In this document: piece by piece, positions 13,104 to 56,439 of the stretch | Numbering within the stretch: the stretch's first letter is position 1 | Layout: every line of letters starts with the position of its first letter | Assembly (NCBI GenBank): GCA_040285855.1 | Contig: JAUFOQ010000003.1 | Coordinates: 682,001-746,000 of the forward strand | Direction: 5' to 3' | DNA length: 64,000 nt | Source of the DNA: Eukaryota sp. GEM-RC1 | Lineage: Eukaryota | Notes under the pieces: generated by a model | What the model was told of the DNA's origin: nothing | Seen by the model: only the letters and a program-made list of their open reading frames with translations | Database searches by the model: none | Translations under genes and position numbers: made by a program

Positions 13104-13337
13104 TTAAATGCATAGGTAGGGGGGAATTGTTTAAGGAAAAGTCTTCCTAGACCTAGACTACTAGTAGGACCAGACTGTAATGTTTAACTCCTTCTCCCTT
13201 CAATTATTTTCATAATTCGTACACAATCCAGACATACTCTATAGAATCTATACAACCAGTCGCACAGCAAATTCAACGTATGATAAAACTGCACCGAGAA
13301 CTTCAGACACAATGAAATTTATGCATCAATAAAAAGA

Positions 13338-14808: not shown

Positions 14809-14959
14809 CAGCTCAAAAATGGTTGGAAATGATGTTTTGATCAGAAAACAGTTTTGAAAATGCCTCAAACCCGTGTGTTCTTGTTAAGTCAGCTACTGAT
14901 CAGTAGCATAGAGCGGAAAACACCGGACGTGTTTGAACACGGTGTAGCTGTAAAAAACG

Positions 14960-15150
14960 GATTTGTGTGAGAAAACACACAACAAGAAAACAACAAATAT
15001 ATAAAAACTATTAAAACAAATTATCAAACGAACTACTGTACCTCATTCCGAAAAGTAGTTGCCTCAATACACCTTTCACAAAATGGAATCAACATATCTA
15101 TACATAGACCTAAAAATCGAAGAAGCAAATTTGCTCTTCCAGTACGATCC
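14960..15150 (-). mobile_element. Extreme 3' end of an RLE non-LTR family (coding tail plus UTR)
   Basis: WKSKFASSIFRSMYRYVDSIL tail; homologous copies at 48685-48870 (+) and about 60730-60790. Confidence 0.5.
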
Positions 15151-18955: not shown

Positions 18956-20375
18956 ATGTCTGCAGAAGGACCAAAGTCCTTGATTGCTGAGTCTCATCCA
19001 GGGCAGCTGGATCGTACCTTCATTAGTCAAACAGACACATATGCGCTAGACCAGTCTCCTCAACTCATATCATCCTTTCAAAGTGTATCATCTTCTGTTA
19101 CGCAGGACAAATCCTCTTTGTGTGATGGCTTTGGACTCGTATCCTCACCAGCTTCATACACTGGATTTGGCTTCGGATTTGATTCTCTTAAGCCCAATAA
19201 CCCATCATCATCTTTTTTACTCGTCGTTGTCCTTCAACGACAACTCCTTCTACTCCGATTTCTCTCAACCAAAACCAGAAGAGAAGCAATCCTTCATCAG
19301 CCCCCAATTCTGTCCTCCCGCCATAAATCAATTCCCCGTCTTTCGCCAAGATGTCTACCCTTCCACTCCTACCTCCTCCGAATCCGGTCCCCAGCCAGGA
19401 TCTCATTCCATAGGTCTTCCGTTCTTTGATCAGACCTCCAACTTCCCTCAGAACGCGTCTCCTTCCAACTCTAACCAAGTTACCGAAAAGGTCATCCACT
19501 CCAACGTCTCCTCCCTCACTAAACCTGAGGATGAAGTCGATGAGAAAGGAAAGAAGAAACCATCAAATCCCTATGAAGAAGTGCTGGACGATGGATACCA
19601 ATGGAGGAAGTATGGCCAGAAGTTCTCCAAGAACTCCCCTTTTCCAACATGTTACTACAAATGTGCCTACCCCAACTGTAGTGTGAAACGTCAACTTCAA
19701 CGGGATTCCGATGGAAATGTCGTCTCGATTTACCGTGGCAAACATAACCATTCAGCTCCCCAGGTTGTCAAACGTACCATCAACACTCAAGAAGAGCTCG
19801 TATCACTAGTTGCCGAACACTGCGTAATCAACGAGAACACCTCTGGTGACGTGTTGATGAGAGCCAGGAGCCTTTCTCGATCTTCTTCCTATGCTGATAG
19901 ACGATTGATTCTGGAGTGTGAGGATACTGTTGACGTGTTTAGTGATGAGTTTTCTTGGAAGAAGTATGGCCAAAAGCAAGTTAAAGGGGTGGCTCTAATG
20001 CGATCTTACTTTAAGTGTGCTATTCCTAATTGTCCAGCCAAGAAGCTAGTCCAAAAGTCATCAGATAACAGCTCACAATCAGTCGTGACTTATGAACATT
20101 TGCACAATCACGATTCGTCTACTTCTAAAGTGACTTGTACTGGACCTAGATTATCGGGAGACTCGTCTCAACTTTGCAAACGTAGTAATCCTGGTGGTTT
20201 TAATTCAGGACAACAGTTTGTTCCAATGATTCAAGTAGGCAATCAGCTGTATATGCTAAATACTAACTCTCCTGGAGGACAACCTTATTATGTTGCCGTT
20301 CAACCTCATCCTTATATGGTTCCTAGTAATGGTCATCCACAGCAAACTGTTAGCGAGGAGGAAAGTCAATTGTAG
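18956..20375 (+). CDS. Group I-like WRKY transcription factor with two WRKY domains
   Basis: DDGYQWRKYGQK...YYKCAYPNC...YRGKHNH and DEFSWKKYGQKQVKG...SYFKCAIPNC...YEHLHNH; ATG 18956 joined to the 19083 frame by a frameshift or intron. Confidence 0.93.
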
Positions 20376-23397: not shown

Positions 23398-24852
23398 ATG
23401 ATGTCTTTCCGATTAATTGCTGTAATTGCGATCCTAGTTATATGCTCGATGGCAGATCCTCAATCTGGTGTTCAATCCACTATTTCAAAACGTGGTATGG
23501 ACCATATCATGGATGTTGTCGTTTCTCTCCTGAGACAACAACTTGAGAATGTTCGATTACCTGATCAAAAAGGGAAGGCCAGCTCTCCCATAGGCCACAT
23601 TAAGTATGAGTTGAAAGATATTCTTCTGTCTGGCCCAAATTTCGGTACAGTTTCCCTTAGAAATGATGGAGGTGGCATTAGACTCGATATATCAGCTGTT
23701 ACCTGTCATATACATATGAAATGGCGCTACAAGTATCACTTTGTTTCCAGACAGTGGTAGGGGTTTGTTCTTGTCCTTTTGCTTTAACTTCAGCAGAAAT
23801 TGATGTTTCTGGAGTTAACATAGGCATCTCTGCCGACGTGGTTCCCTCTTCAGTCGGTGGAGTAACTGCCACACTTCGAAATCCCGCTGTCAATATTGGA
23901 CACATGAAAATCAAGTTACATGGAGGAGCCTCGTGGTTATACAAACTCTTTGTGGACATCTTCTCTCATGATATCAAGAAAAGTGCACAGTCAGCTATCA
24001 GGGGATGCCATGATGTCCACGCTTCAAGCTCTTATCAAGGAATCCCTTTCAGGTGTAGACCCAATTGTCCCCATTGATAAGTTTGCTGATCTTGATTTCC
24101 GTCTCAAGAAAACTGTTTTCTCCCCAAGTGGTTTCATTTCCAGCCATTTCAACGGTAATCTTCTTCAAAAGGGCTCTTTAGTCCGTCCAGAATTTCCCTG
24201 TTATGTCATGCCCGACCAAATCAATGACCAGCACCTTCAACTATTTCTTGGTGAATACGTTTTAAACAGTGCTGGTTATGTGTATCACGTTACTGGCGCT
24301 CTTAAAGAAACAGTCACTGACGCTGATATCCCAGAGTCTTCTTGGATTCACTTGAACACACATTCATTCAGATACATCATCCCAATCCTATACGCCAAGT
24401 ATCCAGATATGGCTATGGAAGCTGTTGTTAGCTCACGTGCACCTCCTTCAGCAGTTATCAATTCCACTGGAATTACCGTTAAAGTTCCTGTTGTTGCTAA
24501 TGTCTCTGTTGTTCTCCCCGATCAAACTCGTCATGCCGTATTTAGTTTGGGAATCGATGTTGAAACCTCTGTGAAAGCTTGGGTAGATCAAGGTGTTCTT
24601 TTGAAAGGACAAATGAACATGTTGGGATTCAAGTTTGGCGTTATTTCTTCAGAAATTGGAACCTTTGATACTAAGGATTTGACCAAAATTATTAATGATA
24701 TGTGTAAGTATGGAGTTGTTCCCTTCTTGAACGTTGCTCTGGAAAAGGGTGTTGAAATCCCTACGTCTAAAGGTGTTGTCATGCTTGCTCCTCAAATTCA
24801 GTATCAAAAGGGATTCATGGCTATCACCACTGATATTGATTACAGACCTTAA
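23398..24852 (+). CDS. LBP/BPI lipid-binding protein, paralog 2
   Basis: Signal peptide; 31-nt intron 23763-23793; 3' part nearly identical to paralogs 1 and 3; apparent frameshifts near 23747 and 24003. Confidence 0.85.
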
Positions 24853-25606
24853 TTTTCTGGAATATTGTATAAATATTTTTCCTGGACTACAAATATAGTA
24901 ATTGCAATTGTTCCAGGAACTGAAATCAGCTGTTCAAAATGGAACAAAAATACAGATTTTTTTGGAAAATTCATTTTATGGACTAAGTACTAGCTGGAAA
25001 TGTTAATCACTAGTAGCTCAGTTGAGCACAGGAAATCAACCGCAACTTTTTCAATTGTTCGTCGATATAGGCTCGTTGTTCAGAAGAGATCACAGTATTG
25101 TTGGTCAGAAATCTGAGAATGTCTGTGGAAGAACTCTGTTGAGAATTGGATGCAACTAATTCTGGTTTTGCTGGTGCTGGATCTTCAGCAAAGTGGTTCA
25201 AATTCCAATGCAAGTGAAAGTGTTCAAGCGAAATTGGTTCCTGATTTGAATACAGAGCTTCGATTGTCCGTAAGAAGAAGTGAGCTTTGGATTGCCATGA
25301 CTTGATGATTGATTGATAAATCGATCAATCATGAGTATCCGATCATAAGAGCAAAGCCACAGGCGAAGGACCGCTCTTGAAGAGATACTGTGACATTTGT
25401 GGAGACACCAAATTTTAAAGATGTAAATGAATTTATGGTCCATTTGACAATGTGGTGCGTAATGACAAAATAAATCTATTTATGGTGCGTTTTGTGGTAC
25501 GTTAAATCAGTGTCTCAATTTCCATTGTACAACCACAATTTGAAACACAATTGACTTCTAACCTTTGTGTTCGAAAGGCAACTTCTCTTAGGCGATGCTA
25601 AGTATC

Positions 25607-26715: not shown

Positions 26716-26758
26716 GTAGTATGGTCCAGATCAATTCTTTTGATATTCAATAGTCTGG

Positions 26759-26790
26759 ACTTTAATTAGTCTGGCCAGACTAATTAAAGT
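26759..26790. repeat. Perfect 32-bp palindrome
   Basis: ACTTTAATTAGTCTGG|CCAGACTAATTAAAGT; related near-palindrome at 26823-26843. Confidence 0.9.
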
Positions 26791-26858
26791 TTTGAGCTTT
26801 AAATATCACACTACATGTAGAAATTAGTCTGGTCCAGACTTAATACTCTGAATACTGT

Positions 26859-29386: not shown

Positions 29387-29431
29387 AGCTACAGTCGTAT
29401 AGACTACTGTAGAGTGTGGGAAAAGGATACC

Positions 29432-29512
29432 AAAATTCAAATTTTTAAATATATTTTTAATTACCTATATGTAACGTAGATAAATAAAAATATATTTAAA
29501 AATTCAAATTTT
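29432..29512. repeat. AT-rich inverted repeat (28-bp arms)
   Basis: AAAATTCAAATTTTTAAATATATTTTTA (29432-29459) vs TAAAAATATATTTAAAAATTCAAATTTT (29485-29512), 2 mismatches; inner TTACCTA/TAGATAA extends the stem. Confidence 0.8.
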
Positions 29513-29844: not shown

Positions 29845-30279
29845 CTTTCACCCCCTTTGCACTCATCATAACCACAAGGTTATGCAAGCGACACCAAAGG
29901 TATTAAGTTACCTACGGTCGAGCTTCTATTGCTCCTTTTCCTTCCCTAAGCTTCGTTGTTCTTTTCACCCCCTTTGCACTCATCATAACCACAAGGTTAT
30001 GCAAGCGACACCAAAGGTATTAAGTTACCTACGGTCGAGCTTCTATTGCTCCTTTTCCTTCCCTAAGCTTCGTTGTTCTTTTCACCCCCTTTTCACTCAT
30101 CATAACCACAAGGTTATGCAAGCGACACCAAAGGTATTAAGTTACCTACGGTCGAGCTTCTATTGCTCCTTTTTTTCCCTAAGCTTCGTTGTTCTTTTCA
30201 CCCCCTTTTCACTCATCATAACCACAAGGTTATGCAAGCGACACCAAAGGTATTAAGTTACCTACGGTCGAGCTTCTAT
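29845..30279 (+). repeat. 117-bp tandem repeat, about 3.7 near-identical units
   Basis: ATGCAAGCGACACC recurs at 29882, 29999, 30116 and 30232; unit equals 39 codons (MQATPKVLSYLRSSFY...). Confidence 0.95.
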
Positions 30280-33200
30280 TATTTTTGCTATTCTGATAAA
30301 TATGGTCTTCTGTTGTGTTCTGTTTTATTTTGTTGGATTTCCAGTTGTGATATTTTTACATCGGTCCCCATATCCCTTCATGTGTTAATAAATCAACAGT
30401 CATCTCAGTTTTGTCATGACCTAACCACGGATGGAGACATAGAGTCCAATCCAGGACCTCCTCTTACAGATGACCTTAGAGATGAGCAACTGAGACCCGT
30501 TTTTGCACCAAACGTAGACAATATCGAGACGTTAGAGCCCAACGTCTGGGTTAATGATGATGTCATCGACTTATACGGTGATTTTCTTACAAAAAGCAGC
30601 AAATGTTGTCAGTACTTTCCAATCAATGACCTGCTTGGTGCTTCTGGTGTTTATGATTTTCAACTATTATTAAAAAAATTCGAATACCGAATAACAACAA
30701 TGAATAATTGTGTTCCGAAGAAACGATTCATATTCATGCCAATCAACGATGGCCTTTTCGGTAAAACTCCGACTCATTGGACACTTCTAATTTGCGATAT
30801 TAAGATCAGACGAGTTTTTTCAATCGATTCAACGTATACTGAAGAAGAACACTTCAAACAACTGGCGAATACAATTCGAACTTCTCGCAATGAAAAAGTA
30901 GTCCAAAAATTACAGCAAGATTTCTTTAATGACGCACAGTATTTGTACATGGATAAACTAGTTGTAAAGCAAGAGCAAACTGAAAACGATTGTGGACCTT
31001 TTATTCTGATGTACATTCAAAAGTTTGTTACCTTAACAGACTCATCTATTGATTGTTCATCTATCGATTTTAAAGGAATTTTAACCAAACTCGTAATAAG
31101 CCAAGACTATGATGCTCTAAAAATGAGGAAAGCAGTTTTGACTCATATTATGACTACTCAATCAGCAGAGAGGGCTGAACGTGCTAGAGAAATCTTAAAC
31201 AAATACTTTTCAGTTCATTCGACACCTTCTCAACAACGTCGTAAACCCAAAAAACCAGATGTAAGAAAGAAAAAAGGTCCTAAAACTAAACAACCGGCCA
31301 AAAAAAGAAAGAAGACTGCTAATACTTCTGATTTGTCTGAACCTTCTACACTGATGTCATCTACTGATGAAATTCCAGATCCTAACAAACTGACAAAAAC
31401 TCAATTACAAGAGGTTTCAGAAGCAATCAAATCGTTGTCATCTGAAGAATCGATTGCAGAAGAATGTGTCAATTGGTACTCTCGTCATTTGATGGACATA
31501 TACAAAGTTGATTTCAATGCCTTTGTAACTCCTGGATCTATTCAATCATATTTAGTTGATGAAACTCAATCTCTCCACGAGTTTTTCATGAACAAAATTC
31601 TTCAGACAGATTCCAGATATCTTTTTGTTCCAATAAATGATGCAATGACTGGTTTACATTGGGATTTGATTGTAATTGATAAAAATGATCTACAAGTGAT
31701 ATTTCTCGATCCTCTTTATAATGTTGAAGATCACAGGCAGGATGTTGATAAAAATTTAAATGAAATTGACTCTTATTTGAATCAATATATTTCAAAAATA
31801 CATGAAATTCTTCATCAACTCCAGTTTCAGCTCATTATTGTCCCAGTGCTACAGAAACAAACAGCAAATGATTGTGGAGTATATGTTCTTCAGTTTATGC
31901 GAGGACTTATAGAACTTCTGACTTCAAACCAATTCACAGATCAATCTCTTCTCCATGCTGCTGATAGAATGATACAACAACCTATCAATACTAGGGAGAG
32001 TAGACAAGAAATAAAAGTGTACCTTCAATCTCTACAACCTCTTACAAGTAGAAACCGCATATCTGGACAAACCAAAATTAAGCGAACACGCAAATATCCG
32101 GTGAAAAAAACTGACAAAGTTGCTCAAAAAAAGTCAAAAAGGATTATACGTAAGCCCAGTGATTCTGATATAGGGGTTCCAAATGTGACTCATAAAGAAT
32201 TTCTAAATAGTTTACCCGGTGAATTGTCTAACCGACAAAAGAGACGTCGTTTGAAGTTGCACATGATACAACAAGCACTTCAAGAAGCTGAAGAATTGTT
32301 TCAGGATTCTTTGATTCGTCCAAAGTTAGAGACTTTAGCTCCAATAGATTTGACAACTCCTAAAATAAACGTTGCTGCTTGTGAGAAAACTCAAACCACA
32401 AAGACAACAGCTAAAAGTACAACAAAAGTTGGCAAATCCAAAAAGTCTACAACCAAACCAAAAGCAAGTGGTAAAACTAATGCTACCAAGAGTCTTAAAC
32501 CTCCTAAGAAACAAATGATTGACTTTCATTGTAATTCCGAATTACCAGGAGACTCTAACTCTTGTTCAATTTTGTCGTTTGATATTGAAACAAGAGAAGT
32601 TGATCAATTACCTGCGGAGAAACTTACGAAGAATTTGAATGATCAAAGACAAGAACAAAATGAAGTTTTAAAAAACCAATGTGATTCAGAAAGAGAAGCT
32701 TGGATTGAAAAACAACAAGTTTTCATGATTTCTGGAGTTTTCGGTCATTTTATTAAGGATGAGTTTTACCTTCAAGAAAGCTTTGTTGCGACTTCAGAAG
32801 AATCAACTTCCTTTTCAGAGGTTGAAAATCCAACTGATTGCCATAGCCTTTTCTTTTTTGAAGATGAAAAACAATTACTAGAGTTTTTTGTCAACTATTT
32901 GACTGATAAAAATCCGTTTGTTTTAACTGGATTTAACATTACTAATTTTGATAATGTTGTTCTAGACAAAAGAATTGATGCATTTGGAATAGACTTTCCA
33001 GAACCAATGCTAGATGATACCACAAAATCACATTTGTCACCTTTATGGCAACGTGTTTGTACTGAATGGGCTGGTAGAACTGTATGTGATTCTTACCTCT
33101 AAGCTAAACAATTCATTGCTACAAAATGTTCAAGGTCACTAAGATCATTAAGTTGGTTTTTATTAAATGAATCTAAAGGACGTCTTCATGACAAATTTGA

Positions 33201-35425
33201 ACACTTATCGCCTATTGATTGTGTTAGTAGACGACCTCAAGAAGTTCTAAACTATTGTTTCAAAGACAGTGTACTAGTATTGAAGTTGTTTTTATTATTT
33301 CAATCAAATAAAATAGTTCGTCCCACTTTTGTAACACATAAGACTACACTGAAGTCTATTGTAAAACATACAGGACTGGAATTATTGTTGAATTATTATG
33401 CTCTATTGGTTCATAAACTACGAATGCACACTTCTTATTGTTTAAAGCTGTTTTTATTGCATTTAAATAAGAATGAGCTTCCACTACCAATAATTACAAG
33501 GAAAGAAGTTGAGCACATTCAAACTTTGCTGAAGGAAATCTCTGCTGATCGTCATCAGATTAAACTAAACAATGGAAATCCGACAATTAATGACGACTTG
33601 AGAAAATTTGTTACAAATCAATACAAACAAGTTATGTTTGACAATGGTGGTATTCCACAATTTCCAGCCAACTATTCTCCACGACTTATGGCAATGGTTG
33701 GTGAAACAATACAAACAAATTTGAACACAAACATTAAGATGCGATATCCGCAGTCCATTGACAAATTTATTAATGTTTGGTTTGAAAAAAATAGTGTTGA
33801 AGAAGAAATGTCTAGAAAAGAAAAGTCTGTATTTCGATGGAGATTGAGACAAGTAAAAATGTTTTTCTTCAAAGGAATAGAAATGATATTCCAACTACCA
33901 CTGAAGAAATACAGGAGTTTATTGAACAATGTGATACCATAATACTTGAAGATGACAATGAAAAAAGCTTAAGTAGAGAAGATAAAATTGAACTTTTAAG
34001 GCAAAGCCACGACACTGTTCTAGAACTGTTCCAAGATAATGTTTGCATTGATATCCTCTTCCCACCATCAATTAAAATTCAAAAGTCAAATGGTGATTAT
34101 GAAGACAAACAGATTGATTCTCTACTTAAAGCAGTACATGAACATCCACAATCGTTTATTAAATCAGCAATACAGATAAATAACTTTCTTGAAGAGGATG
34201 AAGCCAGTACTTACAATATAATTCCGATTGTTCGACACGTGGTTCCAGGCTTCTTTGAAGTGGATACACAAGGTCTTTGGGGAATATTACGTTCCACTTT
34301 GTCAACAAAACAAGTGAATGTTAAGAAAAGCCAATCTGAGTGGAATACACAAACTGAAATTCAAAAATGTCTCCTGCTGAACAAAATCAATTCTGGTCTC
34401 ACTTTTTCCATTTTAATCGTCCATTTCAAAAGAAAGGCTATAAGTTTAACAATTCTATTAAAACTGATGGTTTCTCTGCCTGTGTTGAACTTACCAGAGA
34501 GGACTGTGTGGGAATGTCCTTCAAACCAGACAGCGCAAAGTTCTCCAGTACTGATGAATATGTTCAAGACTATGATATTGAAGAGTTTTCATCGAAAACA
34601 AAAGTTTACATTGATCCTGGCAAGAACGATTTACTCTACTTTTGCTCAGAAAAAATAAGAAAGCCTGAAAATTTAGCCCGTGAAATGAGAAACAAAGAAT
34701 ACGAGTGGCTAAGATTGACAGAAACAGAATGGTCGAGATTGTCCAGAGTCCATCAAAAGTTTAGAAGGGGAAAGAAAAAAGAATTCATTCTCCTAGATGG
34801 AAAAACAGTTGAACAAGAAGAGTCAACATTGTCGAAAGAAAACTCGAAGTCCACTCTTTTTCAAACCTCCTATGACTATGTGAGTTCCAAACTGACAGTT
34901 ATTGAATCAACATTTGATTACTACTGTTTGATGATATGGCGCATTCAAAAATGCAAAGATACGTCCATATTCAAAAAACAGAAAGTAAGTTGTTGAAAAA
35001 TATGACTGCAAAAGGATGGAATAAAAACGACAGTGTATTGATGTTTGGTGACAATGGTAATAAGAGGCAGAACCTAAAACATCTCCGATCAAGTAGAGGT
35101 GTGATGTGGAGAAACTTCTTTAAGAGAAATGGTTACAACCTTGTTCTCGTAGATGAGAGTTACACATCTTCAAAGTGTCCTACTTGTTTGGGGGCCAGTT
35201 AAAGTGTTTATGGAAGTTGACAATCCTAGACCCAAGACACAAGAAAAGAAGCCTACGGTGAAGTTACATGCGTTGTTGAGATGTCAATCTGAGAAGTGTA
35301 GAGAAGAATGTGATGACAAGGACAAAGTGTGGAATCGTAACAAGTTAGCATGTATCAACATCAAAGCTATTGTGGAGCATCATTTGGAGCGGGGTCTAGG
35401 AGTTAGACCCAGTTATTTGTCATAG
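30232..35425 (+). CDS. Reconstructed polyprotein: leader - 2A peptide - Ulp1/C48 protease x2 - PolB-type 3'-5' exonuclease - Fanzor1 (TnpB-like RuvC + zinc finger); one in-frame TAA and about four frameshifts
   Basis: DIESNPGP; WVNDDVIDLY/HWTLL/NDCGPF and HWDLI/NDCGVY; ILSFDIET, GFNITNFD, YCFKD; same frame across TAA 33100-33102 into KTTLKSIVK; SIKTDGFSAC, YIDPGKNDL, LMFGD, VDESYTSSKCPTC, LLRCQSEKC, WNRNKLACINI. Confidence 0.85.
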
Positions 35426-35497
35426 TCATATCGATAGTTATAGTCTTAATTTACTACGTGAATCCGTAGTTATCTGAGCTTTAAGTTCACGGATTCA
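35385..35497 (+). ncRNA. Putative Fanzor omegaRNA scaffold/guide region
   Basis: Hairpins GGGTCTA/TAGACCC (35392-35410), CTACG/CGTAG (35454-35469) and TGAATCCGT/ACGGATTCA (35459-35497); non-coding conservation with copy 2 for about 45 nt past the stop. Confidence 0.5.
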
Positions 35498-35675
35498 GAA
35501 CAATTGGTAAACATACTACTGTAGTAGTATTTGTTCATGTTCTATTCTCCTTCAGAGCTCCTCTTAACAGAAATTGTTCGGTTTTTGCCTGTATAGCCGT
35601 TGACAGCATTTTTGTTTGGAGTATCTGTTGGAAACTTAATGACGCCGGCTTATGGTATTATAGTTGTGGCTCAGA

Positions 35676-35820
35676 TACACTTCAGGAAACATTTAGTCTC
35701 ACTGAGACTAATTCTTTACTCAAGATTTTATTTAGTCATCCCAAAATTAGTCTCACCAAATCTCAGTGAGACCAATTTTGTACTGAGACTAATGTGAGAC
35801 TAAATATTTCATGAACTGTA
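35676..35820. mobile_element. 145-bp TA-terminated MITE (Tc1/mariner-like)
   Basis: TIR TACACTTCAGGAAACATTTAGTCTCAC / GTGAGACTAAATATTTCATGAACTGTA; internal TAGTCTCA/TGAGACTA repeats; similar end near 57778-57811. Confidence 0.75.
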
Positions 35821-36150
35821 GCTTTATTCAAAGCCGGATAAACCATCTTCAGCATTTCGGGAGTTACTTTGGAGAGTCGCCTTATTCAGAACAAATTTAA
35901 TGAATATAATTGATTTAGCGATTACATTTTGAGTGCCCCAGTATTTTGTCGCACGAATATGCATCAAACAAAATACAAAAGCAAAATTAAGAAGTGATTA
36001 AACTTCAAGTTCAGTCATCACTCTAGCTGAACTGATCAATAAGACTACTACAATGGTAACAAAATCCAGGGTGGACAAAAGCTGCAGAACAAAGAAATAC
36101 GCAAACAAGAAAACTTCTTCAATAAAATATTTATACAATATTCCAGAAAA

Positions 36151-37627
36151 TTAAGGTCTGTAATCAATATCAGTGGTGATAGCCATGAATCCCTTTGATA
36201 CTGAATTTGAGGAGCAAGCATGACAACACCCTGAGAAGTAGGGATTTCAACACCCTTTTCCAGAGCAACGTTCAAGAAGGGAACAACTCCATACTTACAC
36301 ATATCATTAATAATTTTGGTCAAATCCTTAGTATCAAAGGTTCCAATTTCTGAAGAAATGATACCAAACTTAAAACCCAACATGTTCATTTGTCCTTTCA
36401 AAAGAACACCTTGATCTACCCAAGCTTTCACAGAGGTTTCAACATCGATTCCCAAACTAAATACGGCATGACGAGTTTGATCAGGGAGAACAACAGAGAC
36501 ATTAGCAACAACGGGGACTTTAACAGTAATTCCAGTGGAATTGATGATCGCTGAAGGAGGTGCACGTGAACTAACAACAGCTTCCATAGCCATATCTGGA
36601 TACTTCGCGTATAAGGATGGAATGATGTATCTGAATGATTGGGTATTGAGATGAATCCAAGAAGACTCTGGGATATCAGCGTCAGTGACTGTTTCTTTAA
36701 GAGCGCCAGTAACGTGATACACATAACCAGCACTGTTTAAAATGTATTCACCAAGGAATAGTTGAAGGTGCTGGTCATTGATTTGGTCGGGCATGACATA
36801 ACTGGGAAATTCTGGACGGACTAAAGAGCCCTTTTGAAGAAGATTACCGTTGAAATGACTTGCAATGAAACCACTTGGGGAGAAAACAGTTTTCTTGAGA
36901 CGGAAATCAAGATCAGCAAACTCATCAATTGGGACAATTGGGTCTACACCTGAAAGGGATTCCTTGATAAGAGCTTGAAGCGCGGACATCATGGCATTGA
37001 GTATAGCGGATTCAGCACTCTTCTTGATGTCATGGGAAAAGATATCAACAAAGACATTGTATAGCCAGGAAGCTCCTCCATGCAATTTGATGTTTAAACC
37101 TGCAATTCCAACAACGGGATTACGAAGAGTGGCTGTGACTCCACCTGTGGGACTTGGAACAATATCGGCAGAGATGCCTAAGTTGGCAACAACATCAATA
37201 TCCGCTGAAATCAATCTCTAAAGGTGACATACCAGATCCAGAATCCCTGATGAAATTATACCTGAGATTAGTTGATTTTTGTACCATACTTATAGTGCCA
37301 ACCCAAGTGAATGTGACAGCTGACACTTGATATATCCAGACGGATACCTCCTGCATCATTTCTAATGGAAATTCCACCGAAATTGGGATTGGTAAGGAAG
37401 ATCGCAGTCAAATCATAGTTAATATTGCCAATGGGGGTAGGGGCTTTACCGCTTTGATCTGGAAGTTGAACGTTGTTTAATTGCTTGCGCAACTCAGTTA
37501 CCACCACATCAGTGATATGTTGAACACCACGATTGGAAATAGTAGATTGTACACCAGCATATGGTTCAGCTGAGCATCCAATGAAGACAAGAGCAAGAGA
37601 GACAAAGATGAAAACAAGGGAAGCCAT
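36151..37627 (-). CDS. LBP/BPI lipid-binding protein, paralog 3
   Basis: Signal peptide; 28-nt introns 37262-37289 and 37205-37232; highly similar to paralog 1; homopolymer frameshift near 36195. Confidence 0.88.
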
Positions 37628-38343
37628 CAGATCAAAAAGGAATGTGAAAACACAATCATGTTGGTTAAATTTTAGAAGTGACCGGACCAACTTTTAGGCA
37701 AGTCTACATACGTGTATGATGCGGTAACGTGTTCTAACAATCCCCTTAATTTACTTGTACAAAAAAGAGTGCCATCAATATTAACAAGGGAGACACCAAC
37801 AAAAATGATAGCCCTCCTGTTCATAAACTTTCTTTATACTATGAAGATACACACGGAGTTATCTGTCCTGTAACATGAAAAAGTGAATTATGATTTATTT
37901 CATCCATACTAAATTTGAATATTCAAAAATAGTATGATTCAGACTAATTCTTGTAAGGGCTGTTGTATTCACAACTTGTGTTCCTGAAGACTCCTTATTG
38001 CCAACAATTTGTGACGTTATCTAAAATCAGAAACCTAATTTACGATGGTAATCTGATAGTACTAATGCTCCTAACTCTATTAAACTGCCTCATCACAATT
38101 TTCAATAATTTTCGATTATTATTTTAAAAAAGAAACAATACACGTAAAATCAATGTAAAATCTTACCAATAATCACACCAGTGTAAGAGTGTTTAAATTG
38201 AGATAGTGACTGTGGATCAAAGAAAAACCTCAAAAAATTTCCAAACTCACAAATGATTCTGTCAAATCCAAATTTAAGAGATTTAAATCATCTTACTGTT
38301 AAATAATTGAATTTAAAATGGTGTTACGAAATTCAAAAAAAAC

Positions 38344-44426: not shown

Positions 44427-45509
44427 TTACAACTGTATAGCACTTCTTAAATAATCACTATACATCAGCCTAAAATCATTAAGTGACACGTCACGACAAT
44501 CCTGTATCACGACATCAAACTCTTCTCTACTTTTTACCATCCCAACCTTAAACACAAGTTCATACAGTCGCTCTACAGGCAAAACAACATCAAAATCCTC
44601 TTCAGAAAGACCTAAAGGTCCCAGAATTCCAGATTGTAAGGTCTTTTGGCAGGATACGTTATACCCATCAAATCCTAGCGAAGACTGACTTATATGCTCA
44701 GTAGAAGCTCCAAAAGTTAGATCACAAACAGATTCAAGACCCTTGGTTGGCTTTCGAGTTCTCCCCAACTCTTCATCACTTGCTTCTCCTTCAAAGCGGA
44801 AGCAGTCCCCAGCCCGAGTAGAAGTACCGTTGGATACACCGAAACAACGAGAAGAAGCATCTAAAGGTGCAGAGTTTCTATTCCTTGGCTTCTCAATATG
44901 ATGCTCATTATCCTTGTTCTTGAGAACGGTAGACCTTACAACGGAAGTAGATGAGCAGTCGAAAGGTTGACACAAGGACTTGACTTGGGAACCAGTATTG
45001 GAAGTGCCTTGAGATTTATAACCAAAACGGAAAGAATCTGGATCCACTGGCCACTTGTAGTTTCGTTTAACTTGTTCTGCAGGAAGGTAGTCACGATGTG
45101 ATTTCTTGTACATTTCTTTGCATGTTTCGTCATCAGATTCTTCCTCATGTAGTAAGATGTCCTTAGCTTGACTGGAAGAGGCGTGGCGTTCGTTGCAAAT
45201 TCCAAAGCAATGAGAGGAGTCAACGGGAGGAGTGGCTACAACAGTTGGAACAGTGCCGAGAGGACATTTTGTAGCACATTTGTACCTACGTTCTTGCCAA
45301 GAATTATGATATTCTTGGATTTCAGACTCAGGTTGGGGAAATAAGGAAGTACTGTCTCGGTCAGTTTTGATACCAAAAGAAATGGAGGGTGGAGGAGGAT
45401 CTTTGGAAAACCCACGATGTTTCACGGATTTACCTAATTCACAGCAAGAAGAACGAAATGGCTTTAGATGAGGAGGAGTTTCAGGTCTTTGTTCTGAAAG
45501 ATAGTCCAT
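44427..45509 (-). CDS. EFHB/CFAP21-like ciliary protein
   Basis: Repeated FG motifs, MYKKSHRDYLPAEQVKRNYKW...FRFG, degenerate C-terminal EF-hand. Confidence 0.65.
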   Translation of the reverse strand: MDYLSEQRPETPPHLKPFRSSCCELGKSVKHRGFSKDPPPPSISFGIKTDRDSTSLFPQPESEIQEYHNSWQERRYKCATKCPLGTVPTVVATPPVDSSHCFGICNERHASSSQAKDILLHEEESDDETCKEMYKKSHRDYLPAEQVKRNYKWPVDPDSFRFGYKSQGTSNTGSQVKSLCQPFDCSSTSVVRSTVLKNKDNEHHIEKPRNRNSAPLDASSRCFGVSNGTSTRAGDCFRFEGEASDEELGRTRKPTKGLESVCDLTFGASTEHISQSSLGFDGYNVSCQKTLQSGILGPLGLSEEDFDVVLPVERLYELVFKVGMVKSREEFDVVIQDCRDVSLNDFRLMYSDYLRSAIQL

Positions 45510-45541
45510 TAGATTGGGATGAATGCGAAGATTCAATAATG

Positions 45542-46570
45542 CTACAGATTCGCTTCCGTAAATACTATAACTATGACAAATGACTATGACAAATAACTGG
45601 GTCTAACTCCTAGACCCCGCTCCAAATGACGCTCCACAATGGTCTTGATGTTGATACATGCTAACATGTTACGATTCCAAACCTTGGCGCTACCATGACA
45701 TTCTTCTCTACATTCTTGGGACTTGCATCCCAAAGCGTGACACTTTACCAGAGGTTTCTTCTCTCTTTCCATGGTTTTGGATTACTGATTTTTGAACACT
45801 TTAACTGGCCCCCAAATAGTAGGACACTTTGAAGACGTGTAACTCTCATCTACAAGAACAATGTTAAAACCATTTCTCCTAAAGAAGTTTTCTCCAACCA
45901 ACACCTCTACTTTATCGGAGGTGTTTTAGGTTCTGCCTCTTATTACCATTGTCACCAAACATCAATACACTGTCATTTTTATTCCATCCGTTTGCAGTCA
46001 TATTTTTCCACAACTTACTTTCTGTTTTTTGAATATGGACGTTTCTTTGCATTTGTTGAATGCGCCATATCATCAAACAGTAGTAATCAAATGTTGATTC
46101 AATAACTGTAAGTTTGGAACTCACATAGTTCTTCTAAATTTTTGATGAACCCTTGACCATCTGGACCATTCTGTATCTGTCAATCTTAGCCACTCGTATT
46201 CTTTGTTTCTTCTTTCTCGGACTTTTTCTTCATGAAATGGGCTATTTACTTTCTCTGAACAAAAATAGAGTAAGTCTGTTTTTCCAGGGTCAATAAACAT
46301 CTTTTGTTTCCAATGAAAACTCTTCAACGTCATGGACTTGAACATATTCTCCTCTACTGGAGAACTTTGCATTGGCTGGTTTAAAGAACATTCCCACACA
46401 GTCCTCTCTAGTCAGTTCAACACAAGCAGAGAAACCATCAGTTTTAATAGAATTGTTGAACTTATAACCTTTCTTTTTAATTGGACGATTAAAGTTGAAA
46501 AATATGACCAGAATTGACTTTGTTCTGGAGACATTCTCTTAATTTCAGTGCTTTTATTCCACTCAGTTTG
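45542..46570 (-). mobile_element. Fanzor1 copy 2, C-terminal half (pseudogenised) with conserved 3' end
   Basis: Collinear with 34335-35469: NSIKTDGFSAC, FIDPGKTDLL, LMFGDNGN, VDESYTSSKCP, WNRNMLACINI, RGLGVRPSYLS*. Confidence 0.88.
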
Positions 46571-46599
46571 TCTTTCAATGGACTCAAACAGTTCTTTGA

Positions 46600-47800
46600 G
46601 TGATCAATCTCTGCCCTGGTTGATACTGCCATAACTGAACGCTTGAGAACTTCTTACAATGCACTTTTATGATCCCGAAACCAACCACAAACTCCTTTAA
46701 TAACAGCAATGGCTTCCATTTCACTTAATACACTACCGCCAATTTTTCAGAATAGTCTAGAATTGATCCGCAAGTGTCTACAAAATGTCTTTTGGAACAA
46801 GTCAATTGATCAATACATGGTTCCACAGTGTCAATTTGATCACTGTAAAACATTGAATTGGAAAATCCCCACAATTCTGAGAATTGACGATATTGTGGAT
46901 TCAAAAGTGTGCAGCGTTCCATGTCAAAGTGATGAGTCAAATCTGATTGATCATTCAATCTTTCCATCAAAGACTTGGACAACCCTCAGTTTTGATTGAT
47001 TACTACCGGGGGCAATTGTTTATGATCTCCAACAATTACAATGGTTGTGAATTCATTACAAATTCGTAACGCAGCCACTAGTTCAGGCTCAGTTGACTGG
47101 CAAGCCTCATCAATAATTAAAAGTTGTGGTTTAACAATACCTTGATTCCTATAACTGCTCGCTCCTGCTAATGTCGTGAAGAGAACTTCAAACTTTCAAT
47201 CCAAGAACGGTCATCCTTTTCTTCTTCATCATCTTGAGGTGTAGTGGTATCTGGCTGACCATGTAAAATGTTTCTTCGTGGTTGTTTCAGTGGAGAAAGT
47301 CTAACAGCTTGTTGATCTAATAATTCTTGTTGGGCATCTTCTTTAGCTTGTTTTTCTTCTAACTTTGTGGTGCTTTATGTTAGGTACGGACATACAAGAA
47401 GTGAAGATTAAGTTGTTTTATAATCTATGATTCTCATACTATGATAATCTACATTTGTACTTAACAGAAATGGTTCGAATTCTGACAAATGATGTAATTC
47501 AGAACTTATTCGCATTAATTTTTCTTTGTCAACTGACTGTTCATCTACTACTTTGGCTAATATTACATCAACTGCATTGTTCGATGGACCAGCTACCCAA
47601 ACCTTACATTTGTTAGACATGAAAGACATAATCAATTTGACAATTGTCGTTGTTTTCACTGTACCAGGTGCTCCATGAATCACATGTAAACCAGGTGAAG
47701 TTACATGCAATTTACTAATTTCTTCAATTGCCTTTCTTTGAGATTGATTTTAATTTTGACTGAGTTCTGAATCATTCTTGAAACTTAAACAACTTAATTA
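46600..47800 (-). pseudogene. Decayed SF1 helicase (Upf1/DNA2/NAM7-like) directly upstream of Fanzor copy 2
   Basis: VIHGAPGTVKTTT (Walker A), AGPSNNAVD (Ia), LIIDEACQSTEPE (II), IVGDHKQLPPVV (III), SLMERL, QYR, NQGRD (V-like). Confidence 0.8.
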
Positions 47801-48684
47801 AAGAACTATGGTGCTTGATGAATACTTCCTAATTTGTATTGAACACGTAAAGGAATTTCTAAATGCACCATGGCAGAAATTTGACTGCTGACATTTGAAA
47901 CATAAACGCTTTGACAAAGCTTCGGACCGTCGACTAGAACGGAAAGGCAAATCTTGAGATGAGGTGGATACAGGTTCAATTACCAGAACCGATTTGGAAA
48001 ACAGAAAAACCACTCTCATGAAAATTTCTGTTAGAAATTGAAAACTCTCACATTAAGGTTAATGACTCAAACAAAGGTTGACTGTAAAGGAAAACCACAA
48101 TCCTTGTACAACCAATATTTGCTTCATTGAATGGGGTTACATTTTTTCACTGAATAAAGCTGAAATCGATCTTAATAACCTTCTTATCATGCTACTATAG
48201 TGTTGCACCAGTTTCTACCCTAACCCACAGCTCAGCCTGGCTGGGCTTGACAATTCACTGGGCTCAGCCCTTCAGCCCATATACAACTCTATATTTTTAT
48301 TGCAACATTTATCAACAGTAGATATATGTATCAATTTCGTAGGTATCGTAATGCCCTTGACCAACAGTCATTACAATAGTTAAAAGATACGATTGTGTGT
48401 AAACTACTAATTATATGAATCAATTTGTTTGTTGTGATGTACCTTAGTGTAGATTGCATGAACTCTAATTCATCTTCTTTCAGTAAAATTCCAATCTGGC
48501 TTTCTTTGTAGCGCCATCTCACCAAGATACACCGTAACAATAATAGATGACACACCACCTCCTGCTTTTGCTACTTCGTCAAAGTCGAAATAAACTCTCC
48601 ACTGAGTCTTTGAGAGCTTTATTGAGCTTGAGATCCTGGATGAAAGGGGAGATTGTACAAGTGTTACAAGAAATGAAGTCTTTA

Positions 48685-48870
48685 AAATAATTGCTTTTTC
48701 GATTTTTAGGTCAATGTATAGATATGTTTTTTAGATCCATTTTGTTTAAGTTGTTTGGAGGCAACTACTTTTCGGAATGAGGTAGTTCTCCTGATAATTT
48801 GTTTTAATAGTGTTTATTTAAATGTTGTTTTCTTGTTATGTGTTTTTTCCTGTACACAAATCCGATATAT
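48685..48870 (+). mobile_element. 3' tail of RLE non-LTR family
   Basis: Reverse-complement homolog of 14960-15150 (FSIFRSMYRY...LFGGNYFSE*). Confidence 0.55.
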
Positions 48871-49151
48871 TTGATTGTTCGCATAGAAACTGTGTTTTTG
48901 GTACATTATAACTTACTAATTAGTCTAATGCTGCAAGAGTCTCCCCAATGGGCTGCCCTAATGGTTACAGGCCCTCAGTGACCCATTGTGCTAACTCTGT
49001 TTCATTCCGACTTAGTCTTTCTCATCTCTCTCCATTTTGGTGATGTACACAAGTGATGAACCTTCCAACTCTGTTTTTGAGGGAATGGTTGGATACAAGA
49101 ACTAGGACTTATCCTAACATTCCGGTGAACGTTCATATTAAAGTTAATCAG

Positions 49152-49475
49152 TAGGGTTGTTAAAGGTCACAGGTCACAGGTCAGGTCAATTCATTTGAAG
49201 ACCTTGACCTGACCTTTGACCTGAATCAGTTGACCCTGAACTGACCTTTGACCCGAAATCTACATTTTACTTTACTCTTTAACTATCGAAAATCCGTATA
49301 AACACAGTCAAATCTAATAATTTCTTGAATATTAGTGTAAACTAAGAGTAAATTGCGTATGATGATCTAATTTTGATCCTTTAAAACAAGAAACTCACAC
49401 ATAAACTGCCAAATGTTTGACCGTGACCTGACCTTTGACCTGATGTTCGTTAGCTGGACCTGACCTTTGACCTGA
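49152..49475. repeat. Cluster of TGACC(T) motifs, probable transposon subterminal repeats
   Basis: Starts TAGGGTTGTTAAAGGTCACAGGTCACAGGTCAGGTCAA; many GACCTGACCTTTGACC units in two blocks. Confidence 0.7.
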
Positions 49476-49749
49476 ACATATACAGTTTCTATAACGAAGT
49501 AATCAGAGTCAGGGTCCCTGACTCAGGAAAGGAATCAATTACGTGACATCGATGGCGGAAATTTACTGAAGGTAAAGACGACTCCACACGAGATACGTTG
49601 AGGTGAAAAGAGATTTGTAGAGATGAAGGCATATACGTCTATATGTGAAGACTCTAAACATGTATTTTATTGATGTTGAACGTTTACAAGTGACACAGTG
49701 ACAACAGAGTGTACACTTGAAGGACTTGTCTATGAAGATGTCTATGTCT

Positions 49750-51257: not shown

Positions 51258-51439
51258 ATTTGCAGAGTTGATTTGGACTAACTTTTGGATTTGTTTGTTT
51301 TGGCAAGACGAACTTTTACAAATTTAGATAAATTGACGTGTCGAAAAGTTTCCCAACCTAAAGTATTTGAAATCAGAAAAATTAACACGTTATACCAGTA
51401 AAGAAATAGACAATATTTATACATCAAATACAATAAAAC

Positions 51440-53312
51440 TTACTCCTTTTCCTTCTCATTAGCCATGTGTTGACCAATTACAGCAATCAAAATGGAATTA
51501 ATGAACTTACCATTAAGATCAACTATATGTTCATCGGAAGCAAAGATAACGCTACTACAAAGCTTCCTCATCATTGTTAAAACATAACGAGCATTCATAA
51601 TCTTATCTTCTCTCTCCTCACTTTCTTTCATTACTTGTCTACTCATTTTACCTGGGAAAGCAGCGTCAAGTAAGTGAAAAAGAACATTCCATTAGATAGA
51701 GTTCGATCTCTAATTGAAGCAATTGGAGTTCCACCAACAGATTGGACAAGGTTGTTAGCTAATTCTAGAATCATTTTGTCAGAAACATTGTTGCCAAGAA
51801 CAGATGCGTGAGTTTTAATCATATGAGCACGCTGAACTTGGAATAATAAACTTGGAAGCATTTTACGATCACCTTCAGCAATCACTCGAGCATCAATATT
51901 GACCAATCTAATCCCAATGTGAGCTAATCGATCCAAGACATAGTTGCAGTTTCCTAAAATAGCAAATTTGTTCAGTTTTCTAGTACCTCGTTGTTGTTCA
52001 ACTTTTTGAAATCAACAGCACCGGGAACGATTTGATCAATCACTTTTGATAGGATAATTCCGTCTTTAAGATCATTATACATATCATCAATGTGAATTGA
52101 TTCGTCGAGATTGTTGATCCAGTTAACAAACTGTCGTTCTTCAGCAGTAAGAGCAGTAGAAGAAGAATATTCCTCAATTTGAGCTAAAATACTAGACAAA
52201 TCTTCCTCTTCTTCATCAGTATAAAGTCCAGGTGATGCCTCAAAGAGTTCTGCTAAAAGAACAAGATTCATCTTTTCATCAGCAGATAGAATTGACCTTA
52301 GAGTGGCAACAGGTTTAGCTTTGAGAGTGTTTTGGATTAAATCTAGAATTTTGTTTAATCTGGGTGCTCCGGGATTAAGAGATAAAATATCTTCTGCTTC
52401 AATCTTGTGAGTTCTTCTAGTAGTTTGAGCTAACAAATGAGCCAAAACTCGTCCATCGACCAAATCTGATCCAAAATTTGAAATAACATGTTCTCCAGCA
52501 TTTTTTAAATGGAAGTTCACCCATCTCATAAGAATTTGTTCACATGGCAACTTCATAAAGAGTTCAAGATCCTCACCCTTTTCTAATAACACTGCTAGCT
52601 CAGGATGACGACTAATAGAGATGTTCTGGCCTAATAAAGCTCTAACAGCTTGCCAAAGCAGACCTAGACATAGATGTGGGGTTCCTGCAAGGATATCCTC
52701 TGGTCCCATAGAGACGACGGTGAAGCCAATAGACTTACATGAGCTCAAGGCAAGTTGGAGGTTCTCTAAGCAATGGAATTTCATGAGTTCCTTTCCAGCT
52801 TTGGGTTTGTTAAGAGCATCCATGTGAATGGTTCCTGGAACGACTTTGTTAACAAGAGAGGAGAGCAAGAGACCATCTTTTAAGCAACCAAAGAGAACGT
52901 CAGGGTCGTCCTGTAGAGGGAGAATGTGAGCAAGGCTGGGGTCGTCGGCAAATAAAGAGTTGATGAAACAGACTGTACCAGAGACTTCACCAAGGGAGTA
53001 TGTGTGGTAGGAGTTACCGGCTTCTATCTTACAGATACGGAGGAACTGCTTTAGGTATTTACCAATGCCGTATGTGTCTTGACCTTGTCGAACACTGGTG
53101 ACAATGTTGATGAACTGTTCAAGAGTAATGACGTCTGAGTTGGAGATTTCGGCAATCATGGAGTCAATATCCTCAAGAGGAACTTTCTGGTTGAACTTGT
53201 CGAAAAAAGCATGGAGTTCGGTGCGGTCAAGACTCGAGGAACCGTCTTGATCAATGAGCTGAAACTCAATCTTAATATCTTTGAGTTCGGATGGTGAAAT
53301 TGAAGAAGACAT
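51440..53312 (-). CDS. Fimbrin/plastin (EF-hands + tandem CH domains), copy A
   Basis: DQDGSSSLDRTEL EF-hand; DGLLLSSLVNKVVPGTI, LGLLWQ, EQILMRWVNFHL, EERQFVNWIN, DLKDGIIL, NARYVLTMMRKL; two frameshifts. Confidence 0.9.
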
Positions 53313-53443
53313 GTAGGGAAGGAAATGACGGTCAGTTTTCGACAAATTTTTGAGAATTGGCATGAGCAATGCTTTTACTATTACAAGTTTACAACACACA
53401 GTTGTTGGATTTCTTCAATTTATTAACAGTGTTGCGCCATAAC

Positions 53444-54115
53444 CAGGGAGGACTAATTAATAAATATTGCAAAAAATATTTAGATTCGTCTGCTTAGGAA
53501 GTGCAATAGTTACTGCCTGATATTGCGATATTTAAATAAATATGATTGAAGTCAAACACTTTGAGGTGACCACAATACACACACATTTGAACCGAAATGC
53601 TGTTGTATAGCGACGTTAGGCTGTTCCTTATTTATCAATTGTTTCAATATCACATTGCTGTCAGCCAAAAACAACAAGAAGTCAGGTAAAGTAAAAAGTA
53701 TCTGGACTTAATCTTCATACATCTTCCCATGAAACTGTGACAGCCTCATGACTGTTTACTAAAGCTGAACTAAAGCTAGAAATCCATCGTCATCCTTCTG
53801 TTAAGCCAAACAGTCTTGATAAACACTCGATTCTACACGAAAATCGTGGGTAATGGGGCTTTACATTTAGTTAAATACATTGTTAACACAAGAAGAGCTA
53901 AAGGCGACGATGGTGAAGTAGTAGACATTGGTTAATGATGAGTAGGTTTGTGTCAATTAGTATTTTTGTCCTACTAAATGACATCACAACTAAGATCCCT
54001 ATTTATTAAATATTGCAATATTTATTGCAAGACAACAGAAGGAGTCACAATATTTATTTTCATCGAATCACAATACATGTAACATATTTATTTACATATC
54101 TATTAGTTCTCCCTG
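53444..54115. mobile_element. hAT-type MITE between the inverted fimbrin copies
   Basis: TIR CAGGGAGGACTAAT / ATTAGTTCTCCCTG; 8-bp TSD GCCATAAC (53436-53443) / ACCATAAC (54116-54123). Confidence 0.85.
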
Positions 54116-54218
54116 ACCATAACCAAAAATAAATTTGCCGTACACGTTTGGGTGTATGGACGTATGGCAGTCCATACTCAAAAATTTGTCGAAAACTGAC
54201 CGTCATTTCCTTCCCTAC

Positions 54219-56106: not shown

Positions 56107-56439
56107 TGTATAAATATTGTCTATTTCCTTATGATTTCACATATTTATTTCCGTTCTGCAAACTCTTGGTTAACACCACACCGCTGACCTTGATTAATAT
56201 CATTTCTTTAAAGAAGTATCTTTTAGTTTCAGTGTTATTAAATTGGTTTTCTTCAACGCATAGTTTTGAGGATTTACCCCTAATGACTAAAGTCTCCAAA
56301 ACGTATAGTAGTACTACATGTAGTAAGCCATAGACATTAATTTAGGTTTGAGCAATTCTGGAATATCATCAAATTTATTCGGCACCCAATAAGGTAACCT
56401 TTGTACAAACTATGAAATTGTAAAAACAAACAAATAATA

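Follow-up and report, generated by a model that had tools for sequence, protein, structure and literature searches.

We favor, with moderate confidence, the view that the stretch of DNA examined here is the common 3′ end of two copies of a Fanzor1 mobile element and that it likely encodes an omegaRNA, in which a hairpin over the last codons of the gene would form the first stem-loop (SL1), an ATTTAC...GTAG pairing the terminal stem, and the next 15 to 20 flanking bases the guide. Both copies lie within the window, by which we mean the whole 64,000-nucleotide stretch that was analyzed. Feature coordinates are collected in Table 1. Published systems are cited from the portions of the sources that were accessible.

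Table 1. Positions in the window of the Fanzor1 copies, the predicted RNA elements, and adjoining features
Feature	Position	Strand	Remark
ORF with 2A-like motif, two Ulp1/C48 protease domains, and most of the exonuclease	30163..33102	+	2A-like motif at 30418-30459
PolB-type 3′-5′ exonuclease domain, in frame with the Fanzor N terminus	32578..33267	+	DxE, NxxxFD, YxxxD; one in-frame stop, 33100-33102
Fanzor1 coding region, copy 1	33310..35425	+	TDG 34460-34474; DPG 34610-34624; E 35149-35169; C4 zinc finger; WNRN 35330-35344
7-bp hairpin over the last codons (GLGVRP), leading candidate for omegaRNA SL1, copy 1	35392..35410	+	-9.4 kcal/mol; SL1 is 7 bp in solved Fanzor1 RNAs
Fanzor1 stop codon, copy 1	35423..35425	+	
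AT-rich linker with a weak hairpin that differs between copies	35426..35448	+	register common to both copies, +4.7 and +5.2 kcal/mol
ATTTAC...GTAG, predicted scaffold terminal stem with end at GTAG, copy 1	35449..35469	+	viral Fanzor1 RNAs have an analogous ATTTACAC/GTGTAAA stem
Alternative, longer terminal domain	35450..35511	+	TTTACTA/TGGTAAA pairing around 9-bp stem 35459-35467/35489-35497
Putative guide if the scaffold ends at GTAG, copy 1	35470..35489	+	inferred
10-mer repeated at 29403-29412, candidate target-site duplication	35515..35524	+	lead only; chance 0.05-0.06; recurrent host motif
Intact EFHB-like host gene	44427..45509	-	bounds copy 2 at its 3′ end; Atlas score 0.94
Putative guide if the scaffold ends at GTAG, copy 2	45522..45541	-	within the 32 nt preceding the host start codon
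ATTTAC...GTAG, predicted terminal stem, copy 2	45542..45563	-	
Fanzor1 copy 2	45584..46603	-	5′-truncated near 46600; internal deletion of ~106 nt
Identical 7-bp hairpin, copy 2	45599..45617	-	
Decayed SF1 (UPF1/DNA2-like) helicase	46604..48052	-	adjoins the truncated end of copy 2

Fanzor1 identity of the gene and its multicopy family

Structural and motif comparisons identify the gene as a Fanzor1. Two of the five PDB matches to the homologous protein P0004 were significant, and these were SpuFz1 (E = 2e-22) and PpFz1 (E = 1e-21). For a second homolog, P0003, the top seven Foldseek matches to the AlphaFold model were all Fanzor1 structures, with a TM score by target of 0.81 to 0.82 against SpuFz1. 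This model (mean pLDDT 78.9, with low confidence over residues 1 to 245, the exonuclease part included) has the overall REC/WED/RuvC/TNB fold, which was thus seen in a homolog rather than in the broken window copy itself. All three Fanzor1 marks defined in PMC10711439 are present in the gene: TDG in WED, DPG in RuvC-I, and the alternative E before the zinc finger. The C4 zinc finger of the TNB domain is recognizable in copy 1 by its CPTC and CxxxxC motifs, with a weak match to PF07282 (E = 4e-4) that falls under the cut-off. Where RuvC-III canonically has its aspartate (RD), both copies and the named relatives have WNRN, giving a D-E-N triad. Across 149 library matches, a pattern-based reading of the third catalytic residue returned D in 109, N in 14 (2 of them spurious), and no call in 26. 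GtFz1 naturally carries the same D-to-N change and still cuts (PMC11423790), so the missing aspartate is compatible with Fanzor1 membership. By analogy, the D-E-N triad of the window gene would still cut. A nuclease-dead, TldR-like reading of the change was rejected because GtFz1 is active with it. An alternative genetic code was also rejected, since the standard code gives long host ORFs. A Fanzor1 gene is expected to have an omegaRNA at its 3′ end.

The window piece at 34367-34993 matched five proteins among 376 candidates, all from Eukaryota sp. GEM-RC1 or TZLM3-RCL. The clusters of these proteins hold 30 gene models (13 from GEM-RC1 and 17 from TZLM3-RCL), and at least 29 models across these two relatives indicate a multicopy family. 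A quick tree (66 rows) placed 13 proteins on one branch (SH-aLRT 100), all of them labelled to three taxa. We read the labels GEM-RC1, TZLM3-RCL, and TZLM1-RC as Skoliomonas metamonads; the accessible part of the Skoliomonas paper names isolates RCL and GEMRC, relatives that were assembled from nanopore reads.

Two gene ends share a tail that continues beyond the stop codon

The two copies of the gene end are inverted relative to each other and are 82 to 86% identical across ~1.05 kb, with the last base of the stop codon at 35425 in copy 1 and 45584 in copy 2. A prior sequence-only reading of this DNA had reported an ORF-terminal hairpin identical in both copies. Exactly two sites in the window match this 19-nt hairpin at three or fewer mismatches, 35392-35410 (+) and 45599-45617 (-), both of them exact, where 0.03 would be expected. 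Similarity had also been proposed to persist past the stop codon, and this was confirmed as far as GTAG: the stop-to-GTAG intervals (44 nt in copy 1 versus 42 nt in copy 2) are alike at a score equaled in 0 of 3,000 shuffles. The break points given at 35469 and 45542, with the flanks quoted there, are correct. Identity by itself is no sign of RNA constraint, because the two longest identical runs between the copies, 53 and 54 nt of ordinary coding sequence, exceed the 50-nt run that contains the hairpin. Searches for further copies returned none from viral contigs (queried with P0004 and with a C-terminal alignment) and none from prokaryote genomes (queried with the hairpin pattern), and the one match from metagenome contigs was weak and fell in L001, an unrelated bacterial sequence.

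In the assembly, neither copy is intact. Copy 1 contains a single in-frame stop codon at 33100-33102, together with four frameshifts that all fall at homopolymer runs. Six GEM-RC1 gene models end at the shifted point of copy 1; copy 2 is in frame there, and its A-run is interrupted. A similar homopolymer slip is seen in a host BPI paralog. Judging from the homopolymer sites and the nanopore-assembled relatives, some of the breaks may be read errors. A helicase-Fanzor fusion as a standing architecture, considered for the helicase that adjoins copy 2, was rejected because the sole helicase homolog found is without a Fanzor part.

The in-frame hairpin is the best candidate for SL1

The codons under the hairpin (GLGVRP) directly precede SYLS-stop, and its pair probabilities are 0.96 to 1.0. 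Only six perfect 7-bp hairpins with at least four G/C and a loop of 3 to 8 nt occur in the 64-kb window, two of which are those of the copies. Under synonymous recoding of the peptide, the perfect 7-bp stem has p = 0.018, and p = 0.054 when scored by energy; given the peptide, the hairpin is modestly non-random. In three solved Fanzor1 structures, SL1 of the omegaRNA is 7 bp and the remainder is variable (PMC11423790). The hairpin fits this stem-loop and, by analogy with the solved RNAs, is our best candidate for SL1; it is present in both copies without covariation (n = 2), and its placement is unlike that in viral relatives. An AT-rich stem after the stop codon was rejected as SL1 since it is unstable in both copies (+4.7 and +5.2 kcal/mol).

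Could the hairpin instead be a by-product of Gly-Leu-x-x-Arg-Pro codons, and the shared tail simply be inherited from one ancestor by two dead copies that make no functional RNA? A 7-bp stem occurs in 2.4% of random 42-nt windows, coding runs are equally identical, folding z-scores for the whole region are weak (-0.06 to -1.67), and an Rfam search gave three weak matches, all far under gathering scores. However, relatives in subfamilies that are 32 to 57% identical retain full-length frames in which DPG or a near variant of it, E, and N are all kept, which implies a working RNP, and the characterized Fanzors in the cited literature, as far as its accessible portions go, all have a 3′ RNA. We therefore consider this explanation very improbable.

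Calibration against giant-virus Fanzor1 ends used the best 80 of 299 loci, of which 41 were distinct and 72 usable and from which 26 ends were chosen. A hairpin of at least 7 bp over the RP codons was found at 2 of the 41 distinct loci, and at 0 of 41 beyond recoding, in this selection of the best 80 of 299. A family-wide hairpin over G-x-x-R-P codons was rejected, as it is missing in the other 39 of the 41 distinct viral loci from the same best 80 of 299. Among these best 80 of 299 loci, viral SL1 begins downstream of the RP codons, and a TCA lead-in could be placed in 67 of the 72 usable loci, mostly 26 to 108 nt past the Arg codon, with a few misplaced. Over the 26 chosen ends, again from the best 80 of 299, SL1 covaries at seven of eight pairs, and ATTTACAC is paired with the final GTGTAAA in 97% of cells. 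In the giant-virus ends L005-L081, SL1 covaries strongly and is closed by an invariant U-G pair, and the terminal stem is TTTACAC/GTGTAAA; some giant-virus ends have additional hairpins between SL1 and the terminal stem. The predicted terminal stem of the window copies resembles that of the giant-virus ends (L002-L081) in having ATTTAC as its 5′ arm and closing on GTA(A/G). The window copies differ in that viral SL1 lies downstream of RP with a TCA lead-in, that the viral inner domain is long, and that several viral loci have a clear upstream TIR. A covariance model of the viral ends gave no significant match; its 19 matches in the window at E up to 10 included neither copy.

The predicted terminal stem and the candidate ends of the scaffold

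ATTTAC lies at 35449-35454 in copy 1 and 45563-45558 in copy 2, with GTAG 11 to 12 nt further on in both. Both motifs are unchanged between copies, and their recurrence at this spacing supports a terminal stem there. Its predicted pair probability is ~0.8 in copy 1 and 0.7 to 0.8 for the core pairs in copy 2 (flank excluded). That the stem is kept despite sequence change, as had been suggested, is right insofar as both versions fold, but the changes are one-sided C-to-U wobbles and not compensatory; with the scaffold ending at GTAG, neither stem has any two-sided compensatory change (n = 2 copies). GTAG is only 44 nt past the stop codon versus published RNA lengths of 75 to 150 nt (PMC11423790), so a scaffold with its end at GTAG would have to reach back into the ORF.

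We lean slightly toward GTAG as the scaffold end. An end at 35504-35514, 35 to 45 nt past GTAG, is the less probable of the two, and an end elsewhere is unlikely. The drop in similarity after GTAG had been taken as a sharp boundary. The drop is seen, but not a sharp end: with two copies, anchored similarity after GTAG gives p values of 0.06 to 0.37 (18 tests), and similarity in a shifted register, which may run for ~35 nt, gives 0.004 to 0.35 (60 post hoc tests). An internal, diverged coding stretch scores p = 0.008, so a drop of similar size occurs within the element too.

ATTTAC has two candidate partners, GTAG or GTAAA. If it pairs with GTAAA at 35507-35511, the tail would still be an omegaRNA, but the element and scaffold would extend 35 to 45 nt past GTAG, the guide would start from about 35512-35515, and copy 2 would be decayed and end near 45513-45508. 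Copy 1 has a perfect 9-bp stem that spans GTAG (35459-35467 with 35489-35497, p = 0.0012) and is enclosed by TTTACTA/TGGTAAA, leading to a family-like GTAAA end at 35511. The fold of 35445-35511 has a 7-bp outer stem, with listed pairs inside at 0.87 to 0.96. The viral model aligns ATTTAC with the GTAAA at 35511 at 4.9 bits, below significance, and copy 2 matches the inner 3′ arm at seven of nine positions followed by CAAT (p = 0.044, jointly 0.007, post hoc). A candidate 10-nt duplication at 35515 and 29403 (p ~0.05) would fit the same end. Yet the fold energy reaches only p = 0.045 to 0.074, copy 2 shows no gain (p = 0.59 to 0.84), and the majority of alignment tests are not significant. In addition, copy 2 would end where an intact host gene has its start codon, and a local inverted duplication would yield the same pattern in copy 1. 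We therefore regard the longer element as doubtful.

Beyond GTAG, the outer limit in copy 2 is the ATG of the intact EFHB-like gene, 32 nt further, and in copy 1 a recurrent host motif that begins at 35515. This short palindromic motif (ACTAC..GTAGT / TACATGTA) occurs at 10 sites, including 9292, 26812, 35515, 56313, and 59651, several of them near repeat edges. The best other window match to the first 16 nt of the putative guide was 13/16, and the scan of the window for a guide target was at chance level and found none. Of the combined proposal of a scaffold, an element end, and a guide, what stands is a probable 3′ omegaRNA, expected from the Fanzor1 identity, the hairpin, and the stem, but not GTAG as an established element end and guide start.

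Element ends and neighboring features

No transposase, Rep/HUH, PIF1, or RepHel domain was found among the 25 ORFs scanned, and window scans found no terminal inverted repeats. Scans of the window for a target-site duplication were at chance level except for one borderline 10-mer, whose second site at 29403 is upstream of the element. Within the window, the element thus does not show the TIR, TSD, and transposase of a TIR (DDE) transposon. Since neither a guide target, a TIR, nor a convincing TSD was found in the window, no TAM can be deduced from it.

Alternatively, the hairpins might serve as DNA signals for a one-ended element, Helitron-like or of another kind (a subterminal hairpin, then CTRR followed by T), with any RNA role secondary or lost. 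Helitrons follow an A|T insertion rule, and post hoc the hairpin is seen to be followed by CTAA|T in copy 2 and TGG|T in copy 1. The failure to find a TIR points the same way, as does copy 2, which is 5′-truncated and internally deleted with its 3′ end intact, as are CRe-1, 2, and 3, the Helitron2-borne Fanzor1 elements of Chlamydomonas reinhardtii (PMC3627910). Like CRe-1, 2, and 3, the window element is without a transposase; unlike them, as described in the accessible text, it shows no ATIRs, TTTT junction, or firm TSD in the window, and it has an exonuclease fusion. The match to CTRR, made post hoc, is imperfect in copy 1, the 25 ORFs contain no Rep/HUH or PIF1 domain, and the helicase beside copy 2 is UPF1-like. 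We judge such an origin of the hairpins unlikely, and it would in any case be compatible with an omegaRNA.

Several other features were observed in the window. At 29846-30312, ~3.7 tandem copies of a 117-nt unit overlap the start of the 2A ORF, and the interval separating the element from the host gene upstream of it contains a 36-bp AT-rich palindrome (29432-29512) that may belong to the left end or to a promoter. A MITE-like inverted repeat with TGAGACT sub-repeats lies at 35673-35823, some 200 nt beyond copy 1, and a similar structure is found at 26741-26844. The region 46604-49490 comprises the decayed UPF1-like helicase along with short repeats of GACCTGACCTTTGACC type, both direct and inverted, at 49170-49475; it also has a repeat common to 14958-15128 and 60727-60782 and is possibly another mobile element. 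Host genes include a plastin/fimbrin gene in an inverted duplication at 51379-56150 (98% identity over 1979 nt), three dispersed LBP/BPI paralogs (13334-14819, 23465-24879, and 36124-37638, one of them homopolymer-frameshifted), and a two-domain WRKY transcription factor gene at 19083-20375.

A PolB-type exonuclease is fused to Fanzor1 in a polyprotein

Across 30163-35425, copy 1 encodes in order a 2A peptide, two Ulp1 proteases, a PolB-type exonuclease, and Fanzor1. By the usual functions of these modules, the 2A peptide would release the downstream protein and Ulp1 would remove SUMO. The frame of the predicted exonuclease (PF03104, E = 2e-11 in the window ORF) runs on beyond a single stop into the N terminus of Fanzor1. 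All PolB-type DEDDy motifs are present, namely DxE, NxxxFD, and YxxxD, which we take to be ExoI, ExoII, and ExoIII, respectively. Eleven proteins have the exonuclease followed by Fanzor1 in a single ORF, as detected by Pfam and profile: P0003, P0017, P0020, P0023, P0024, P0027, P0032, P0182, P0183, P0186, and P0194. 2A motifs also occur in P0020, P0027, P0194, and P0197; in P0194 and P0197 the 2A directly precedes the exonuclease-Fanzor part. The P0182 gene model places a DEAH-type helicase ahead of the exonuclease-Fanzor part, which may reflect a junction with a host gene or the merging of models.

An exonuclease profile built from the fusion proteins matched 25 of 202 proteins, all labelled to the same three taxa. 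As a control, 24 long other Fanzors were chosen, and a Pfam scan found the exonuclease domain in none of them (0/24). A database search with the exonuclease only returned four proteins among 989 candidates, all from TZLM3-RCL. Across four subfamilies, identity is 32 to 49% in the exonuclease and 32 to 57% in the Fanzor part, and DxE, NxxxFD, and YxxxD are kept wherever the gene models span them, the sole exception being an E-to-K change in P0024. This retention across divergent subfamilies indicates, at the level of sequence, that the exonuclease-Fanzor1 fusion is old and selected. Among solved structures, the exonuclease comes closest to the proofreading domains found in family B DNA polymerases (E ~0.003 to 0.007), and for this reason DNA end processing is favored over RNA trimming as its probable role.

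No description of an exonuclease-Fanzor fusion was found in the accessible portions of PMC10432273, PMC10711439, PMC10530073, PMC3627910, PMC13565253, PMC6338049, PMC11423790, and bioRxiv 2023.05.03.539051, whose supplements could list such proteins. The word "exonuclease" has 0 occurrences in the main texts of PMC10432273, PMC10711439, PMC10530073, PMC3627910, and PMC13565253.

Comparison with known systems and proposed mechanism

In published Fanzor1 systems, the omegaRNA is located at the 3′ end, can overlap with the ORF (by 17 aa in GtFz1), and extends 14 to 15 nt into the flank (PMC10432273). The predicted RNA is like those of SpuFz1, PpFz1, and GtFz1 in its 3′ position and its candidate 7-bp first stem-loop (PMC10432273, PMC11423790), and in that a predicted scaffold of ~80 nt would end in a terminal stem abutting a putative, flank-derived guide. 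With GtFz1 the window system shares the D-E-N triad and the predicted ORF overlap. It is unlike these three systems in that no TIR was found in the window and that N-terminal 2A, Ulp1, and PolB exonuclease modules are present; its RNA, unlike theirs, is predicted from DNA and has no notable match to known RNAs.

By inference from the family, a read-through transcript would be trimmed to ~100 nt, comprising scaffold and flank-derived guide, and loaded on Fanzor1, which would cut TAM-flanked DNA matching the flank, that is, the empty site. Repair of the cut empty site may then restore the element or copy it back, as reviewed for the family. The fused exonuclease most likely would nibble the 3′ ends of the cut DNA and so bias repair; alternatively, it may trim the 3′ end on the RNA. 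Tentatively, then, we picture a transposase-free metamonad polyprotein element whose exonuclease works in an RNA-guided machine, where it would either process cut ends, so that copying proceeds one-endedly from the 3′ end, or trim the 3′ end of the omegaRNA and thereby set guide length.

TREX2-SpCas9 is reportedly an engineered exonuclease-nuclease fusion. Like it, the window protein tethers a 3′-5′ exonuclease to an RNA-guided nuclease; unlike it, the window fusion is natural, its exonuclease is predicted to be of PolB type, and the exonuclease is N-terminal to Fanzor1.

Taken alone, the omegaRNA would add a further example to a known class, one distinguished by a compact scaffold that overlaps the ORF. 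The exonuclease fusion matters more and is the more novel point. The biological roles of Fanzors are called unknown in the accessible text of PMC10432273. In an exonuclease-fused lineage that has diverged to about one-third identity, both the host role of Fanzors and the setting of guide length become testable through single mutants. An exonuclease-fused Fanzor1 is predicted to offer a natural exonuclease-tethered editor and, if the fusion works as proposed, would be a natural counterpart to the engineered exonuclease-Cas fusions.
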